Assembly: GCA_030651375.1 (NCBI GenBank)
Contig: JAUSFM010000009.1
Span: forward strand, 65,345 to 129,344
Length of the DNA: 64,000 nucleotides
Source of the DNA: Candidatus Woesearchaeota archaeon
GTDB taxonomy: Archaea > Nanobdellota > Nanobdellia > Woesearchaeales > UBA12501
Direction of reading: 5' to 3'
Part shown: positions 19,706-61,076 of the stretch, piece by piece
Position numbering within the stretch: position 1 is the first letter of the stretch
How the letters are laid out: every line of letters starts with the position of its first letter
Notes under the pieces: generated by a model
The model's input: only the letters and a program-made list of their open reading frames with translations
Databases searched by the model: none
Told to the model about the DNA's origin: nothing
Position numbers and translations under genes: made by a program

Positions 19706-19807
19706 TAATACTTAATCTCAACCAACCTTTTTTGCAAGCAAAAAAGCTTGACCAAAATGGGGGCATCCTCGCTTCGCTCGGAGCCCCGCGCGTTAATACT
19801 TAATCTC
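19706..19807. repeat. 14-bp direct repeat TAATACTTAATCTC x2 flanking two hairpin-forming segments
   Basis: Copies at 19706..19719 and 19794..19807. Between them lie palindrome CTTTTTTGCAAGCAAAAAAG and GC-rich hairpin GGGGC...GCCCC. Confidence 0.5.
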
Positions 19808-20047
19808 CACATCCCCTTCTTTTATCTTGCACTGGCAGCACAAGCGGTGCTTTTCATCAATCCCCATTTGCGCCTCTGCTTCGGTGCGTTCCGATAGGTG
19901 TTCCATGCCGCTGATTATTTCAACGTAGCACGTGCCGCACAAGCCGTTTTCGCAGCCGAACGGTATTCCCAACTCTTTGCAGGCATCCTTGATGGGCTCG
20001 CCTTCTTTGACGTCGCGCGATTCACCGCTGGAAATGATGGCTGGCAT
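19793..20047 (-). CDS. 2Fe-2S ferredoxin
   Basis: 84 aa. Cluster-ligand pattern GCENGLCGTCYV ... CCQC typical of the Fer2 family. Confidence 0.7.
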   Translation of the reverse strand: MPAIISSGESRDVKEGEPIKDACKELGIPFGCENGLCGTCYVEIISGMEHLSERTEAEAQMGIDEKHRLCCQCKIKEGDVEIKY

Positions 20048-20177
20048 GAAACGAAAAACCGTGCTGGTGGTTTATATAGGTTGCGGAAATTGATTATTTT
20101 ACTTCAACTATTTCCCTGTTTAGTTCACCCAATCTTTGATAGAAATCCATTTATAGGGGTATCACTTTTTGTTTTTT

Positions 20178-21449
20178 ATGATTAAAAAATCTATTATCTC
20201 AACCATCTTAATACTGCACTTTATACTTTTTAGTTATCCTGTTTTAGGATTAGAGTGTCAATATACTTCAAATCTTGAATATTCAACGGAAGAAGAAGGT
20301 TGGTACTTAAATAATGAGTTATTAGATGGTTCTCCTACTCAGGAAATAATAGGGTCGAATGATAACTTTGAATCTCACAAAGTATACAACCCCTTCGAAT
20401 TTCCCATAACAGTTGAAATTAGTTATGCTACTTTTTCGACATGGTACGGGGGGAGTAATGGTGGAATTACTGGCGTTGTACCTCCTAAACAGTATGTTAC
20501 TCTAATAAGTCATCATACAGCTGATGGGCAGATTCGAGATTTAAAGTTCAAAATTATTGAACCATCCGGAATTATTAACAAACTTGAATTAGTTAAAAAA
20601 AATAAACTTGTCTGTAAAGAATGTGGTGGAAAAGTGTGCATGGATGATGGCTTAACCTGTGAAATAAATTCCGAATGTGGCAGCGGAAAGTGTATAGAAA
20701 AAATATGCTCTCCTAACAATTACTGCTATAATAATAACTGCGAATGCTCCTTTTTTGAAGTTCAATCAAAAGATAACACCAAATGTGAGAATAATAATAT
20801 CTTTTTCGGATTAACATTTATGGCGATGTTACTTATTATCGGCGCACTCATCTTCATCAAAATAATGAGGGAAAAAAGAAAAACAACACAAGCAAAAAAA
20901 GAAGCAGATGTAAAAGTTGAAAAAGAAAAACAGATAACTGCGGAGAAAGAAAGAGAAAAATACGATAAAGAACTTAGTGTTTTAAAAGAACGCCAAGATG
21001 CAATATTAAGAAAAGAAGAGGAATTGGAGGAATTAAAGAGACTTTCTAGTCTAACAAAACAAGAGAAGGAAAATATCCAAAAATTATCAGAAGAAATAAC
21101 TAAAGAAACACTTGAAATGGAGAAAAATGTAAAAAAAAGATTTGCGGTTTCTATGGAACCATATCCAAGTAAATATGCAAGCCATAGGCGTGTTTTTAAA
21201 AATCCCTATCTGGGTGGCTACGAATGTTTTTATGAAGAAAGACTTGACCCCAAAAAATATTCTTTGTCAAAGCTGGTTCATAGGTGGGTTTGGAAAAAAG
21301 CAAATGGGAGGGAACCAAAACAAGGTTATCATATCCATCACATTGATGGAGATAAATACCATAATGATGCAAAAAACCTTGAAGAAATTAAAGGAGACGA
21401 ACATTATGGACTGCATAGAAATGAAAGACAAATTCCCCCTCAATCTTGA
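20178..21449 (+). CDS. Signal/TM-anchored Cys-rich, coiled-coil protein with C-terminal HNH endonuclease domain
   Basis: N-terminal hydrophobic helix, Cys-rich module (CKECGGKVC...CGSGKC...NNCEC), TM helix and K/E-rich coiled coil. C-terminal HNH motif HIHHIDGDKYHNDAKNLEEIKGDEHYGLH. Strongly AT-rich. The track start 20169 is TTG; the ATG at 20178 is preferred. Confidence 0.6.
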   Translation: MIKKSIISTILILHFILFSYPVLGLECQYTSNLEYSTEEEGWYLNNELLDGSPTQEIIGSNDNFESHKVYNPFEFPITVEISYATFSTWYGGSNGGITGVVPPKQYVTLISHHTADGQIRDLKFKIIEPSGIINKLELVKKNKLVCKECGGKVCMDDGLTCEINSECGSGKCIEKICSPNNYCYNNNCECSFFEVQSKDNTKCENNNIFFGLTFMAMLLIIGALIFIKIMREKRKTTQAKKEADVKVEKEKQITAEKEREKYDKELSVLKERQDAILRKEEELEELKRLSSLTKQEKENIQKLSEEITKETLEMEKNVKKRFAVSMEPYPSKYASHRRVFKNPYLGGYECFYEERLDPKKYSLSKLVHRWVWKKANGREPKQGYHIHHIDGDKYHNDAKNLEEIKGDEHYGLHRNERQIPPQS

Positions 21450-21596
21450 TCTCATGCCTCTTTTTTCCATTTTTTTTATCGAGTAATCTCCCCGTTCATC
21501 CCACCCACTGGACATCCCCATTCTGCCTTAAAACCCCCGATCACAGGCCATAAGCCCCAAACTCCGTAGCACTGGACACTGGACAGATGCGCGTGA

Positions 21597-21628: not shown

Positions 21629-22474
21629 ATGGATCAAAAAACTGCTTTGGTCGTGTTTGAAGACAAGAAAATACGAAGAATCTGGCATAATGACGAATGG
21701 TATTTCTCTGTTGTTGATATAATCGGTGTACTCATTGATACTCCCGATGCTCGGAACTACTGGAAAGTTCTCAAACATCGTTTATTAAAGGAAGGAAGTG
21801 AAGTGGTTACAAAATGTAACCAGTTGAAATTACCCGCCCCGGATGGTAAACTAAGGGAAACCGACTGTGCGAACACCAAAAACATGTTCAGAATCATCCA
21901 AACAATACCTTCTCCCCGTGCAGAAACGTTTAAGATGTGGCTCTCTCAAGTCGGCTACGAGCGCGTCCAAGAAATCGAAAATCCGGAATTAGGCCAAGAC
22001 CGCATTAAAAAATATTATGAGCTGAAAGGCTATCCCCAAGACTGGATTGACAAGCGCCTTCGGGGAATTGCTATTCGCCAAGAACTCACCGATGAATGGA
22101 AAAACAGAGGCGTTGGTGAACAGCGTGAGTACGCCATCCTCACCAATGAGATTTCACAGGCAACATTTGGCGTTCCCATCAAAACGCACAAGGAAATCAA
22201 AGGCCTTGACCCGAAATTCAAGAACCAAAACCTGCGCGACCACATGTCTGACCTCGAACTTATTTTTTCAATGCTGGGCGAACGGCTGACCACTGAAGCA
22301 GCGCGCAAGAAAGACGTTCACGGTTTTACCGAGAATCTTGAAACAGCACAAGAAGGCGGCGCGGTTGCCGGCCGCGCGCGTACCGACGCTGAAAAGACTT
22401 TAGGCATTGCTGTTGTTTCTCCAGAAAATGCACTTGATATTGTTCACCAAAAGAAGCGCATAGAAAAAAAGTGA
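21629..22474 (+). CDS. Bro-N domain protein (DinD/antirepressor-like)
   Basis: N-terminus LVVFEDKKIRRIWHNDEWYFSVVDIIGVL fits the Bro-N/KilA-N pattern. C-terminal charged domain. Confidence 0.6.
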   Translation: MDQKTALVVFEDKKIRRIWHNDEWYFSVVDIIGVLIDTPDARNYWKVLKHRLLKEGSEVVTKCNQLKLPAPDGKLRETDCANTKNMFRIIQTIPSPRAETFKMWLSQVGYERVQEIENPELGQDRIKKYYELKGYPQDWIDKRLRGIAIRQELTDEWKNRGVGEQREYAILTNEISQATFGVPIKTHKEIKGLDPKFKNQNLRDHMSDLELIFSMLGERLTTEAARKKDVHGFTENLETAQEGGAVAGRARTDAEKTLGIAVVSPENALDIVHQKKRIEKK

Positions 22475-58112: not shown

Positions 58113-59327
58113 ATGGCACGAAAATACCTTTTCACCAGCGAAAGTGTCAGCGAAGGACACCCGGACAAACTCTGCGACCAGATTTCAGACGCGATTCTCG
58201 ACGCCATCCTCGCCAAGGATCCCAACGGCCGCGTCGCGGTTGAGTGCCTCGTCAAGACCGGCTTTGTCGTTGTCGCCGGCGAAGTGACCACGACCGCGTA
58301 TGTTGATATTCAAAGCATTGTGCGCAGCGTCATCTGCGAAGCAGGCTACGACCGCCATGATTTGGGATTTGAAGGCCAGACGTGCGGTGTTCTTGTCGCG
58401 CTTTCAGAACAATCACCTGACATCGCGCAGGGCGTTGATGAGCGTTCTGCAACGGGAAAAGAAACTGCCGAACAAGGCGCCGGCGACCAAGGATTAATGT
58501 TTGGCTATGCCACTAATGAAACCCCTGAATTCATGCCGCTGCCCATTAGCACCGCGCACAAGCTTCTCTTAAAACTGCGCGACCTTCGCAAAACACATGT
58601 GCTTCCGTACCTTCGGCCTGACGCAAAAAGCCAAGTCACGGTTGAGTATGACGGTGGAAAACCCGTGCGTATTCACACCGTTGTTTTGTCCGCTCACCAT
58701 TCGCCTGATGTTACGCACGCGCAGATAAAAAAAGACCTCATCGAACACGTCATCAAGCCGGTGTGCGGAAACTACCTCGACGATTCAACCATCTATCACG
58801 TTAATCCAACCGGAAAATTTGTGGTCGGCGGGCCGGTTGCCGACGCAGGCCTTACCGGCAGAAAAATAATTGTTGACACCTATGGCGGCCACGGTAGCCA
58901 CGGCGGCGGCGCATTTTCCGGAAAGGACCCCAGTAAAGTTGACCGGTCCGGGGCATACGCCGCGCGCTACATTGCAAAAAACATTGTCGCCGCGGGACTC
59001 GCCGACAAATGCGAAGTCCAGCTTGCGTACGCCATCGGCGTTGCCGCTCCTGTTTCCATTTTGGTCAACTGCTTTGGCACCAACAGGGTTTCGGAAGAGA
59101 AACTTTCTGAACTGGTGAGAACCCACTTTCCCATCAAGCCCGCTGACATTATTTCTCATTTGAAACTCCGCAGGCCCATTTTCAGAAAAACAGCAAGCTA
59201 CGGCCACTTTGGCAGGGACGACCCTGATTTCACGTGGGAAAAACTGGACAAGGTTGACGCGCTGAAACAGGACGCGGGGCCGCTGCATGCTCCTGAACAT
59301 ACAGGGAAAGATGTGGCGCTGGATTGA
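58113..59327 (+). CDS. metK: S-adenosylmethionine synthetase, bacterial/eukaryal MetK type
   Basis: [43 protein letters not shown] and [23 protein letters not shown] are hallmark MetK motifs. Confidence 0.9.
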
Positions 59328-59337
59328 ATTGGTTGAT

Positions 59338-60345
59338 ATGGCTGCTCTTCGTAATTCTAACAAGAATCTTAACTCAAACAAAGCTACGGGAAGGAAAATA
59401 GTCTGGTTCTTGGGGGCAGGAGCTTCTCGAGGTGCTGGTGCCGCACTGCGGGTCGGCGGGTCGGGAGGTACAATTAAAATTCCAATTCAAGCCGACTTTT
59501 GGGACGTTGTTCTAAGGTATGGATCTAAAAAGGATGCTGACAAAATACAATCTTTTTTATTTAGATATTTTGCAGGTTATGATAGGACACCTGCGCGTAG
59601 TAATCGAAAAGAACGAAGAGAAGTATTGAAAAATATTGATGTCGAAGAAGTTTTTACTTTTTTGAGTGAGAGAATCAAAACCAAGCAAATTCCTGACTCT
59701 TTAAAAACTTATTTTACGGAAATTCAGTCAAAACTAATACGCACGGTGACAAAAACCCTTCGTAAATTCGAACCAAATGCCCAAACTAAGAAAACCTATG
59801 CCACCTTCTCTAAAAATCTTCTGCGAACAAGAGACGCTGTTGTATCTTTTAATTACGATACTATCTTCGAATATTCTTTGCCAAAAAACAAACCCTTCTT
59901 TTATCAGGATGTTTCGAAAAAAACTAAATTTTATGCTGTTTTCAAGCCGCATGGTTCTATAAACTGGAAGATGGGGGAAAACAAAAAACTTGAAGTTGAC
60001 GATTATGTTGACGAACCCGAACTAATCCCTCCAACACATCTAAAATTTATCGGAGAACAAATTGACCCAATAAAACTGCTTTGGAAAAAAATGGAAATTC
60101 AAATGCAAGCAGCCAAAACTTTTGTTTTTATAGGTTATTCATTTCCTGATGCTGATTTCTACTTTTCTTCTGTTATGCGATCTGTTTTAACAAAAACTAA
60201 AAGAAATGTTAAAATAATCCTTGTTGACCCCGATGCTCAGCGATTGTCAGAAAAGTTTGGTAAACGTTTCTCAATAACTCAAAACAGGATTCTAAAATAT
60301 TTTGATTTATCACAACTTCTTCAAATTAAGCGTAAGACATTATAG
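59338..60345 (+). CDS. SIR2_2-family (defence-type SIR2-like) protein
   Basis: N-terminal IVWFLGAGASRGAG, then FNYDT and HGSINW motifs of the SIR2_2 fold. AT-rich gene immediately after metK. Confidence 0.65.
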   Translation: MAALRNSNKNLNSNKATGRKIVWFLGAGASRGAGAALRVGGSGGTIKIPIQADFWDVVLRYGSKKDADKIQSFLFRYFAGYDRTPARSNRKERREVLKNIDVEEVFTFLSERIKTKQIPDSLKTYFTEIQSKLIRTVTKTLRKFEPNAQTKKTYATFSKNLLRTRDAVVSFNYDTIFEYSLPKNKPFFYQDVSKKTKFYAVFKPHGSINWKMGENKKLEVDDYVDEPELIPPTHLKFIGEQIDPIKLLWKKMEIQMQAAKTFVFIGYSFPDADFYFSSVMRSVLTKTKRNVKIILVDPDAQRLSEKFGKRFSITQNRILKYFDLSQLLQIKRKTL

Positions 60346-60510
60346 TTCGGTCATTTCAGATAAGTCCGCTTTTGAATTTATTTTTCTGCCTTTTAATCCC
60401 GCCAAAACTATCTTTACCAATACGTTCCCTTCCTCTAACTGTATTCGTTTAGGTCTCATTTGATCTATCTCACCGAAAGCTTTATATATACATATACATT
60501 AATACTCTCT

Positions 60511-60723
60511 ATGTCGAAACTTATCAGCGTCTCGGATGATGTGTACACAACCCTTAAAGAGATGAAGGGTGAGGAAAGCTATTCTGTTGCCATAAGAAAA
60601 CTCTTTACCCCTAAGTCGAATAAAGAGAAGATACTCAGTTTTTACGGGAAAGGTGGGATTGACAAAGAAATGATAAAAGAGGTTCAAAAATCATGGAAAC
60701 AGTGGTCAGAAAAATATGTTTAG
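60511..60723 (+). CDS. Putative VapB-like antitoxin
   Basis: Small ORF (MSKLISVSDDVYTTLKEMKG...) overlapping the PIN gene start. Confidence 0.4.
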   Translation: MSKLISVSDDVYTTLKEMKGEESYSVAIRKLFTPKSNKEKILSFYGKGGIDKEMIKEVQKSWKQWSEKYV

Positions 60724-61076
60724 ATTCTGATGTTGTTATCTCTTTATTGAACAAAGATGAACCTACCTATGTTTCTCTTCAAAAACTTAATGCAACCTTT
60801 TGCATCACCGCAATAACCTCATTTGAAATATGGTGTGGAAAGAACAAACCAGAGACCGTCTTTGAAATCCTCGAGTCCTTTCACACGCTCGACTTTGATA
60901 CTCATGCAGGCCGCCTTGCGGGCGACATTTTTCGAAAACTCAAAGAACAAGGACGGCTTATCGAAATGCGGGATATTTTCATTGGCGCAATATGCATCAA
61001 AAATAATATGGAACTGTTCACCCTCAACAAAAAACATTTTGAGCGGCTAAAAGAATTTGGCTTAATTCTAGTATAA
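60693..61076 (+). CDS. vapC: PIN-domain toxin (VapC-like)
   Basis: 127 aa. N-terminal LDSDVVI acidic motif and PIN fold pattern. Confidence 0.65.
   Translation: METVVRKICLDSDVVISLLNKDEPTYVSLQKLNATFCITAITSFEIWCGKNKPETVFEILESFHTLDFDTHAGRLAGDIFRKLKEQGRLIEMRDIFIGAICIKNNMELFTLNKKHFERLKEFGLILV

Follow-up and report, generated by a model that had tools for sequence, protein, structure and literature searches.

What does a protein that appears to join a disulfide-rich ectodomain to an HNH nuclease across the cell membrane do for the archaeon that encodes it, and how did its gene come to lie in an islet of foreign-looking, AT-rich DNA? The gene in question is situated in a 64-kb stretch (64,000 nucleotides, referred to here as the window) of Candidatus Woesearchaeota archaeon contig JAUSFM010000009.1 (assembly GCA_030651375.1, positions 65,345 to 129,344 of the forward strand). 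A reading made earlier from the letters of this DNA (the sequence-only reading) had proposed that the islet was acquired horizontally and encodes a membrane-anchored protein with a Cys-rich module, a coiled coil and an HNH nuclease, which might serve as a defence or abortive-infection effector or as a toxin. We find that the protein belongs to an uncharacterised family that is seen almost only in DPANN archaea and that has an optional ribbon-helix-helix (RHH) partner. We tentatively, with a probability of about 0.4, take the protein to be a membrane-tethered conflict nuclease that would work in the manner of SNIPE from E. coli without being homologous to it. This reading draws on the architecture and topology of the protein, the invariance of its catalytic residues, the use of the scaffold as a nuclease carrier, the mobility of the gene, the RHH partner, neighbours found at single loci, and the precedent set by SNIPE.

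We consider first the nuclease itself. (Note that residue numbers follow a 423-amino-acid (aa) form of the protein unless the 426-aa open reading frame (ORF) is named.) Pfam HNH_3 (PF13392) matches the protein with E = 3.8e-11 and 42.9 bits, against a cut-off of 24.8 bits, over residues 368-408 of the 426-aa ORF, which correspond to residues 365-405 of the 423-aa form; nine PHROG HNH families match the protein too, the best of them at 1.7e-9. In a 21-member alignment, in which 19 members are 31-47% identical to the window protein and one is an 88% identical orthologue, residues H387, H388, D390, K393, N400, L401, H409 and H413 are invariant, and the HNH motif noted in the sequence-only reading keeps its conserved H-N-H geometry. 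When a profile of the C-terminal module was compared to the homing endonuclease I-HmuI (PDB 1U3E), the match (E = 0.01) was weak yet consistent with the motif, with H388 aligned to H75, N400 to N87 and H409 to N96. The HNH_3 homing endonucleases and the window protein have a beta-beta-alpha-Me core in common, and the last metal ligand, which is Asn in I-HmuI, is His in the window protein, giving a true H-N-H. The catalytic site of the window protein thus looks complete.

The remainder of the product resembles a single-pass type I membrane protein, as predicted from its sequence, with an ectodomain that would be rich in disulfides and would comprise a beta-sandwich and a Cys-rich knob (Table 1). 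The hydrophobic N-terminus is followed by a cleavage-type site (V-L-G / LECQY), at a position where the family consensus has V-x-A directly before an invariant L-(D/E)-C-Q-Y. In a predicted model of the ectodomain only, the beta-sandwich has a pLDDT (predicted local distance difference test score) of 85-97, and the Cys-rich module that comes after it follows the consensus CxxCxGxxCLNDGxxCxxxxECGGxxCIxGxCSNxxxCxNNxCKC. The whole ectodomain contains 12 Cys, located between residues 27 and 203, and all Cys of the protein but one lie N-terminal to the transmembrane (TM) helix. This distribution of Cys, together with the hydropathy of the protein and the positive-inside rule as applied to the K/R cluster after the TM helix, places the HNH domain in the cytoplasm, and the predicted topology is therefore N-out/C-in with the ectodomain outside the cell. 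The domain order given in the sequence-only reading (signal or TM segment, Cys-rich module, TM helix, K/E-rich helix and C-terminal HNH) holds both on the alignment and with Pfam HNH_3. Less secure is the description of the K/E-rich segment as a coiled coil. E, K and R make up 50% of this helix and its heptad signal is weak; in 92 members, the TM helix and the catalytic His are separated by anywhere between 66 and 333 aa, and these spacings show no preference for a period of 7 (p = 0.42). The segment probably serves as a stalk or spacer, for which a single charged alpha-helix is as likely as a coiled coil. (Note that a coiled coil that signals in a register-sensitive fashion is unsupported, the linker lengths being without heptad periodicity and the heptad power of the window helix being weak.)

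The islet is filled by a single ORF. Called mechanically, it extends from a TTG codon at 20169 to 21449 on the plus strand and encodes 426 aa. Translation most likely begins at the ATG at 20178, which gives the 423-aa form, because an NCBI protein from a metagenome-assembled genome (MAG) labelled 'Candidatus Woesearchaeota archaeon' matches this form with 100% identity, because the L004 orthologue, which is 88% identical, has this start too (L004 is a related genome in which the EndoIII, small-ORF, Zn-ribbon and ferredoxin genes are syntenic with those of the window), and because a TATA-like box is present upstream. The position of this box would imply that the mRNA is leaderless or has a short leader, and the oligo-T tracts that follow the stop codon may constitute an archaeal-type terminator.

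Table 1. Features of the AT-rich islet and of the gene that follows it. Coordinates are window positions; the symbol ~ marks a corresponding residue.
Feature	Coordinates	Strand	Details or basis
AT-rich islet	20050..21475	.	GC 0.328; lowest-GC stretch of the 64-kb window
TATA-like box TTTATAGG	20151..20158	+	About 20 nucleotides (nt) 5' of the ATG; kept in L004 (alignment)
Coding sequence of membrane-anchored HNH protein, 423 aa	20178..21449	+	ATG start
Signal peptide, aa 1-24	20178..20249	+	Family alignment, hydropathy
Extracytoplasmic beta-sandwich, aa 25-146	20250..20615	+	C27, Y29 and C146 invariant
Cys-rich module, aa 147-206	20616..20795	+	10 Cys; family alignment
TM helix, aa 207-229, then K/R cluster MREKRKTTQAKK	20796..20864	+	Hydropathy
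E/K-rich long helix, aa 230-325	20865..21152	+	21 E, 20 K and 7 R among 96 residues
HNH (beta-beta-alpha-Me) nuclease module, aa 326-417	21153..21428	+	Most conserved part of the family
Codons of H387-H388	21336..21341	+	H388 ~ general base H75 of I-HmuI; H387 ~ metal ligand D74
Codon of N400, central Asn of H-N-H	21375..21377	+	~ N87 of I-HmuI; invariant in family
Codons of H409 to H413	21402..21416	+	H409 ~ metal ligand N96 of I-HmuI; both His invariant
Oligo-T tracts immediately 3' of stop codon	21461..21478	+	Sequence reading
Bro-N + DinD-like gene, directly 3' of islet	21629..22474	+	PADLOC PDC-S13 over full length, E = 2e-116

A word-indexed homology search with the window protein returned 29 clusters of mostly full-length relatives, and an exhaustive phmmer search with the ectodomain as the only query returned at least 137 protein clusters at 50% identity. 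We classified the tails of all 155 ectodomain-bearing proteins that were retrieved, 32 of which are fragments or have short tails. An HNH_3-like C-terminal module is present in 116 of the 155, and approximately 95% of the complete members of the family end in HNH. Two further proteins carry a classical zinc-finger HNH tail (P0105 above the PF01844 cut-off, P0068 below threshold against AI2M-like_HNH), and two others, P0051 and P0063, carry tails with PD-(D/E)xK-type motifs, a call made solely by reading the motif and from sub-threshold matches (SduA_C, 0.017; Mrr_cat_2, 0.12), a PDB sequence search having been uninformative. This classification indicates that the scaffold of ectodomain, TM helix and long helix is, as judged from sequence, almost always a carrier of a nuclease, with the nuclease as conserved cargo; the variants look like the swapping of nucleases on a constant scaffold. 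Three of the 116 HNH_3-like members (P0036, P0040 and P0054) bear an extra C-terminal J-domain (DnaJ), confirmed by Pfam in P0036 and P0040. (In P0109 what appears, at a sub-threshold score, to be a J-domain-like tail stands in place of the nuclease, and the tail of P0048 is similar by eye. In addition, P0025, a 261-aa protein from a 1.8-kb contig, has a fragment of T2SSF, a pilus or secretion platform protein, in frame with the family helix and HNH, and is either an assembly chimera or a genuine fusion.) Mean pairwise identity falls from 0.66 in the HNH domain, the most conserved, through 0.46 in the Cys-rich module and 0.37 in the helix to 0.24 in the beta-sandwich, the most variable.

Full-length relatives were found in 12 MAGs of a species-representative genome collection by a scan with two short peptide patterns, a procedure that is no proof of absence elsewhere. 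Taken as given, the labels of these MAGs are Woesearchaeota, Nanoarchaeota, Nanohalarchaeota, Iainarchaeum, Aenigmatarchaeota and 'archaeon', with four MAGs from automated pipelines labelled Methanosarcinales; relatives from named organisms are nearly all DPANN archaea. In bacterial genomes and on IMG/VR viral contigs, matches are confined to the HNH core of approximately 50 aa, and no full-length relative is present among the best 80 matches on IMG/VR viral contigs. The claim that the architecture is unusual stands, as no Pfam, NCBIfam or PADLOC model reaches beyond the HNH core and searches of the literature turned up no description of the family. Membrane-tethered defence nucleases and nuclease modules of the toxin-antitoxin kind are analogues of the family, whose homology to known systems does not extend past the HNH core.

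In composition the gene is foreign to its surroundings. A sliding GC profile has values of 0.31-0.35 over approximately 20000-21400 compared with 0.44-0.53 on either side, and the GC content of the gene (1281 bp), at 0.327, is the minimum for that length anywhere in the window (mean 0.469, sd 0.031, z = -4.6), which confirms the sharp drop that had been reported for 20100-21500. The GC content of the gene at third codon positions (GC3) is 0.25, against about 0.5 in the host, whereas that of the 28 other ORFs of the window ranges from 0.30 to 0.65; the flanking genes and most of the other ORFs have a GC3 of 0.36-0.65, and values below 0.36 occur elsewhere in the window only within a second AT-rich islet at 59287-61076 (GC3 0.30-0.43). 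The GC anomaly of the gene thus sits at synonymous sites. At all 17 genomic loci the GC content of the family gene is no higher than that of its flanks. Moreover, at the seven loci where the GC3 of the flanks is at least 0.41 (L003, L009, L011, L012, L013, L020 and the window), the family gene in every case has the lowest GC3 of the local genes (0.21-0.36, compared to medians of 0.41-0.60); in low-GC hosts its composition is unremarkable. Low GC3 across the family reflects either recurring transfers from low-GC donors or family-wide selection for AT-rich codons.

A comparison of the window with L004 bears on how recently the gene moved. The membrane-HNH genes of the two genomes differ with a dS (synonymous substitutions per synonymous site) of 0.15, whereas dS is 0.78 for the ferredoxin gene, 0.43 for the Zn-ribbon gene and 0.65 for the EndoIII gene (partial), that is, 3-5 times higher. 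The corresponding ratios of nonsynonymous to synonymous change (dN/dS) are 0.41 for the membrane-HNH gene and 0.05, 0.07 and 0.08 for the three flanking genes; by part of the protein, dN/dS is 0.77 in the helix and 0.51 in the HNH module. The low dS means that the two copies of the gene share an ancestor several-fold more recent than that of the genes around them. This would be explained either by introduction or exchange of the gene later than the split between the window lineage and L004, or by unusual constraint on its synonymous sites. We favour recent exchange, the alternative being that rare codons are selected for in a gene whose product is toxic. Among family loci other than L004, no conserved synteny was found. 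These findings indicate that the membrane-HNH gene is an accessory gene that moves horizontally, and the horizontal origin proposed in the sequence-only reading is supported by the lowest GC3 of the window and by a dS well below that of the flanks.

Many relatives of the gene come with a partner. At 6 of the 17 genomic loci, a gene for an RHH (CopG) protein of approximately 100 aa lies immediately upstream of the family gene and usually overlaps its start codon. These upstream proteins are 53-58% identical to the first one found; one of them passes the cut-off of RHH_1 (23.3 bits, E = 6e-5) and others give sub-threshold CopG-antitoxin matches. When metagenomes were searched in reverse with the RHH protein as query, 21 loci were recovered, at 16 of which the gene directly downstream of the RHH gene is a full family gene on the same strand. 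At two loci it is a gene for a 72- or 78-aa HNH_3-only protein that overlaps the RHH stop codon, at one it encodes a polytopic membrane hydrolase of the YdjM family, and at the remaining two, where 23 and 463 nt of contig are left, neither a family gene, an HNH_3-only gene nor a YdjM gene was detected. The pairing of RHH with HNH_3-only or YdjM genes (L148 49-568, L150 1219-1769 and L143 598-1798) suggests that RHH forms a cassette with alternative effectors. When all ORFs lying up to 900 nt away from a family gene were clustered for 36 such genes, RHH was the sole recurrent neighbour (24 loci); no recurrent downstream ORF of the kind expected for an immunity gene was found in that range at the 36 loci, beyond pairs of near-identical contigs. 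As read from the sequence, a dedicated RHH gene forms an operon with the family gene in many relatives, in a layout like that of a toxin-antitoxin module. The membrane-HNH genes of the window and of L004 are solitary and are transcribed divergently from the ferredoxin gene, and the window has no antitoxin gene adjacent to it such as a type II module would have.

Other neighbours were seen at single loci. MazE/PIN and DUF2683/RelE-like pairs lie near the family gene of L003, a DUF4258/MazE-like pair near that of L002, and a NERD gene near that on the P0003 contigs. At L005 an overlapping PDDEXK_1 gene is followed by genes for ExoVII and an SLFN-like helicase. (At this locus, L005 8001-14295, and also at L006, the divergent member P0029 overlaps the downstream PDDEXK_1 nuclease gene by 4 nt; the large and small subunits of ExoVII and an SLFN-g3-type helicase follow, and together these genes may represent a larger DNA-processing or defence operon.)

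The Bro-N + DinD-like gene directly 3' of the islet (Table 1) encodes a protein that, besides PDC-S13, which PADLOC lists as a candidate single-gene defence system, also matches phrog_15286 (1.8e-87). We excluded this gene from the islet on account of its host-like composition (GC3 0.46), and at no other examined locus does a gene of this type lie next to a family gene.

We reasoned that a precedent for a nuclease of this layout is provided by SNIPE (PD-lambda-1), a membrane-bound protein of E. coli that consists of a TM segment, DUF4041 and a GIY-YIG nuclease and that cleaves phage DNA during injection; SNIPE lacking its TM segment is toxic, and among SNIPE homologues the nuclease is most conserved and the N-terminus most variable (PMC13190303). 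SNIPE offers experimental proof that tethering to the membrane can limit a nuclease to injected phage DNA (PMC13190303). The single-pass, N-out/C-in anchor of SNIPE is what we predict for the window protein, and both have an elongated cytoplasmic middle region and a C-terminal nuclease. Moreover, in both, conservation is highest in the nuclease and lowest in the N-terminal region, and both are encoded by single, horizontally distributed accessory genes. The two proteins are not homologous: where SNIPE has DUF4041 and GIY-YIG, the window protein has an E/K-rich helix and HNH. Pfam gave no DUF4041 match in the window protein at E ≤ 0.1, and its C-terminal domain is HNH_3 rather than a GIY-YIG (T5orf172-type) nuclease. 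Further differences are that SNIPE has almost no extracytoplasmic part whereas the window protein has a 180-aa, disulfide-rich ectodomain; that SNIPE is bacterial whereas the membrane-HNH family is DPANN-archaeal; that the RHH partner of many membrane-HNH relatives is not described for SNIPE; and that the function of SNIPE is experimental whereas that of the membrane-HNH proteins is inferred from sequence.

If the analogy with SNIPE is sound, the anchor and the rigid charged helix would hold the nuclease at the cell periphery and off the chromosome, and the tethered nuclease would cut viral or other mobile DNA as it enters through the envelope. The variable ectodomain might provide specificity or localisation. 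Where the system has its fuller, two-gene form, the RHH protein encoded by the overlapping gene upstream would repress the operon, neutralise the nuclease, or both; the window copy would have lost its RHH partner and would depend on tethering or on auto-inhibition.

Several observations weigh against a conflict nuclease that works like SNIPE. SNIPE has nothing that corresponds to the large conserved ectodomain, for which PDB and BFVD gave no significant match, just weak generic beta-sandwich matches (PDB, viral models), and none of the Pfam, NCBIfam and PADLOC models covers more than the HNH core. The tiny size of DPANN cells makes sequestration at the periphery, away from the nucleoid, less convincing than in E. 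coli. No RHH homologue was found in a six-frame translation of the 64-kb window at E ≤ 1, and the high dN/dS of the helix and HNH module could reflect relaxed constraint in a lineage that lacks RHH rather than an arms race. When PADLOC was run on 81 proteins encoded within three genes on either side of family members, no family was matched more than once and most matches were generic; strictly speaking, a defence-island signal is absent, and apart from RHH the evidence from neighbouring genes is anecdotal. The family is not listed in defence catalogues: in the comparison with these that the sequence-only reading had called for, PADLOC-DB v2 gave only weak matches to the window protein (LmuB, in its coiled-coil region, 2.7e-3; HEase, 4.2e-3). 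Thus, the part of that reading that concerns defence, abortive infection or a toxin is plausible but unproven, and the evidence is circumstantial: the RHH overlap in many relatives and the toxin-antitoxin, NERD, PDDEXK and PDC-S13 neighbours at single loci speak for it, whereas the lack of a recurrent PADLOC family and of RHH in the window speaks against it.

The ectodomain might also play a more active part. According to this alternative, which on the present sequence evidence we consider unlikely, the protein would be a DPANN-specific 'receptor nuclease', that is, an innate immune receptor that works from the outside in. Its variable, disulfide-rich ectodomain would recognise a virus or the surface of a foreign cell, clustering or the helical stalk would turn on the cytoplasmic HNH, and RHH would be a repressor or an antitoxin.

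The closest rival to the conflict nuclease differs from it mainly in whose DNA gets cut. The protein could be a suicide nuclease of the abortive-infection or toxin-antitoxin type, in which an HNH toxin is curbed by RHH, by auto-inhibition or by both, and is unleashed on the cell's own DNA by a signal received through the ectodomain or by loss of the antitoxin. The gene order is that of type II toxin-antitoxin modules with RHH (CopG/Arc/MetJ-type) antitoxins, with the RHH gene first, the toxin gene second and an overlap of stop and start; the minimal pairs of RHH and a 72-78-aa HNH-only protein fit such a module, family genes adjoin other toxin-antitoxin pairs, and the low GC3 could mirror selection for low expression of a toxic product. 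We nevertheless regard this explanation as doubtful. The window copy and several relatives are without RHH, the putative 'toxin' would be a 423-aa membrane protein, and a pure toxin needs neither a 180-aa conserved ectodomain nor a TM helix nor a long stalk. RHH proteins also serve as ordinary transcriptional repressors, and neutralisation of an HNH nuclease by RHH is hypothetical. To our knowledge, no toxin-antitoxin family with an HNH toxin has been established.

Quite unlikely, in our view, is a nutritional or DNA-uptake nuclease that nicks or degrades DNA imported at a cell or host contact site, acting at the cytoplasmic face of the membrane for nucleotide salvage or recombination, in DPANN cells whose biosynthesis is reduced, with the ectodomain targeting the nuclease to an apparatus for host contact or uptake. 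The labels of named full-length relatives, almost all DPANN, fit such a role, as do neighbours involved in DNA processing (EndoIII in the window, PDDEXK_1 with ExoVII, AddAB-like helicase-nucleases, an XPD-like helicase). There are also weak hints of a link to pili or secretion in the T2SSF-fragment fusion of P0025 and in a sub-threshold TrbC-like neighbour. The DNA-repair neighbours do not recur, though, and a housekeeping uptake factor would not be expected to have a foreign composition, a recent coalescence, no synteny and an RHH partner. Moreover, the known competence nucleases EndA and NucA act outside the membrane.

There are HNH_3-type folds that have been co-opted for binding DNA, and the protein could in principle be catalytically silent, its HNH_3 fold just binding DNA so as to anchor the chromosome or a mobile element to the membrane, or to act together with RHH as a membrane-tethered transcription factor. 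The co-occurrence with a DNA-binding RHH protein, and the C-terminal J-domain variants, which suggest functions in protein interaction, would be in keeping with this. Every catalytic and metal-binding position is invariant in the family, HNH is swapped for other nuclease folds in some members, and a mobile, accessory distribution misfits a structural role; a silent tether is accordingly very unlikely.

A still poorer fit is an exported polymorphic or colicin-like toxin, whose C-terminal HNH would enter neighbouring cells, receptor binding and translocation being the tasks of the stalk and ectodomain. Colicin E7/E9-type DNases and polymorphic HNH toxins do resemble the family in their His-rich site (H-H...N...H...H), in the long helical segment ahead of the nuclease, and in the swapping of modular C-terminal nucleases. 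Sequence similarity to them is limited to the HNH motif, a conserved downstream immunity gene was not found at 36 loci, and the signal peptide, the stop-transfer TM helix with its K/R flank and the position of all Cys but one N-terminal to this helix predict a nuclease that stays in the cytoplasm, so that we hold this explanation to be highly improbable. Finally, a selfish homing endonuclease gene, as most genes for phage HNH_3 proteins are, is hardly credible: the nearest HNH-core relatives from outside the family are indeed phage and prophage HNH_3 proteins (40-59% identity over approximately 50 aa) and a weak PADLOC 'HEase' match exists, but the gene is free-standing between the ferredoxin and Bro-N genes rather than inside a host gene, intron or intein, its HNH core is joined to a signal peptide, secreted ectodomain, TM anchor and stalk and not to NUMOD, AP2-type or helix-turn-helix DNA-binding extensions of the I-HmuI type (Pfam found no NUMOD or AP2-type module), and the best 80 IMG/VR matches, as noted above, hold no full-length relative.

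Two other features of the window deserve mention. The sequence-only reading had pointed to direct repeats at 19706 and 19794 as possible att-like sites of the islet. The repeats exist, as two exact 14-nt copies of TAATACTTAATCTC (19706-19807) upstream of the ferredoxin gene, and we reject them as att sites of the islet because what they bracket is a 74-bp indel: the intervening 74-bp segment is missing from L004, where both copies stand adjacent. The insert, between the Zn-ribbon and ferredoxin genes, contains two hairpins, one A/T-rich (13 bp) and one GC-rich. No second copy of the insert occurs in the window or at any of the fetched loci, and its predicted fold does not stand out (z = -1.7). 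No repeat pairs of at least 14 nt and at least 85% identity bracket the islet, the exact pairs that were found being 12-13 nt long, and no tRNA genes or Rfam families that could mark an integration site are present in the 64-kb window. The second feature is the other AT-rich islet (59287-61076, GC approximately 0.34), which encodes a SIR2_2-domain protein (Pfam, 1.4e-9; PADLOC SIR2/Aga_SIR2, ~1e-12) and, after it, a toxin-antitoxin pair of VapB (antitoxin) and PIN (toxin), and which is a further compositionally foreign block of the defence or toxin-antitoxin type.

DPANN archaea are tiny and mostly symbiotic, and how they handle viruses and foreign DNA is barely known. The family described here is compact, consisting of a single gene with an optional RHH partner, and is directly testable; its members are predicted to link, through the membrane, a domain outside the cell with a nuclease inside it. 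Should the family prove to be a DNA-scavenging nuclease, it would bear on how DPANN cells acquire nucleotides. If the receptor-nuclease alternative is true, the module would amount to single-chain nuclease immunity resembling a type I receptor, with no described counterpart in archaea or bacteria. If the family is a defence or conflict system, then the recently established principle embodied by SNIPE, in which a tethered nuclease discriminates self from non-self by location, would extend to archaea and to an unrelated nuclease fold, the ectodomain would add possible sensing from the outside in, and the family would offer a handle on the interfaces between DPANN viruses and their hosts or between DPANN symbionts and theirs.

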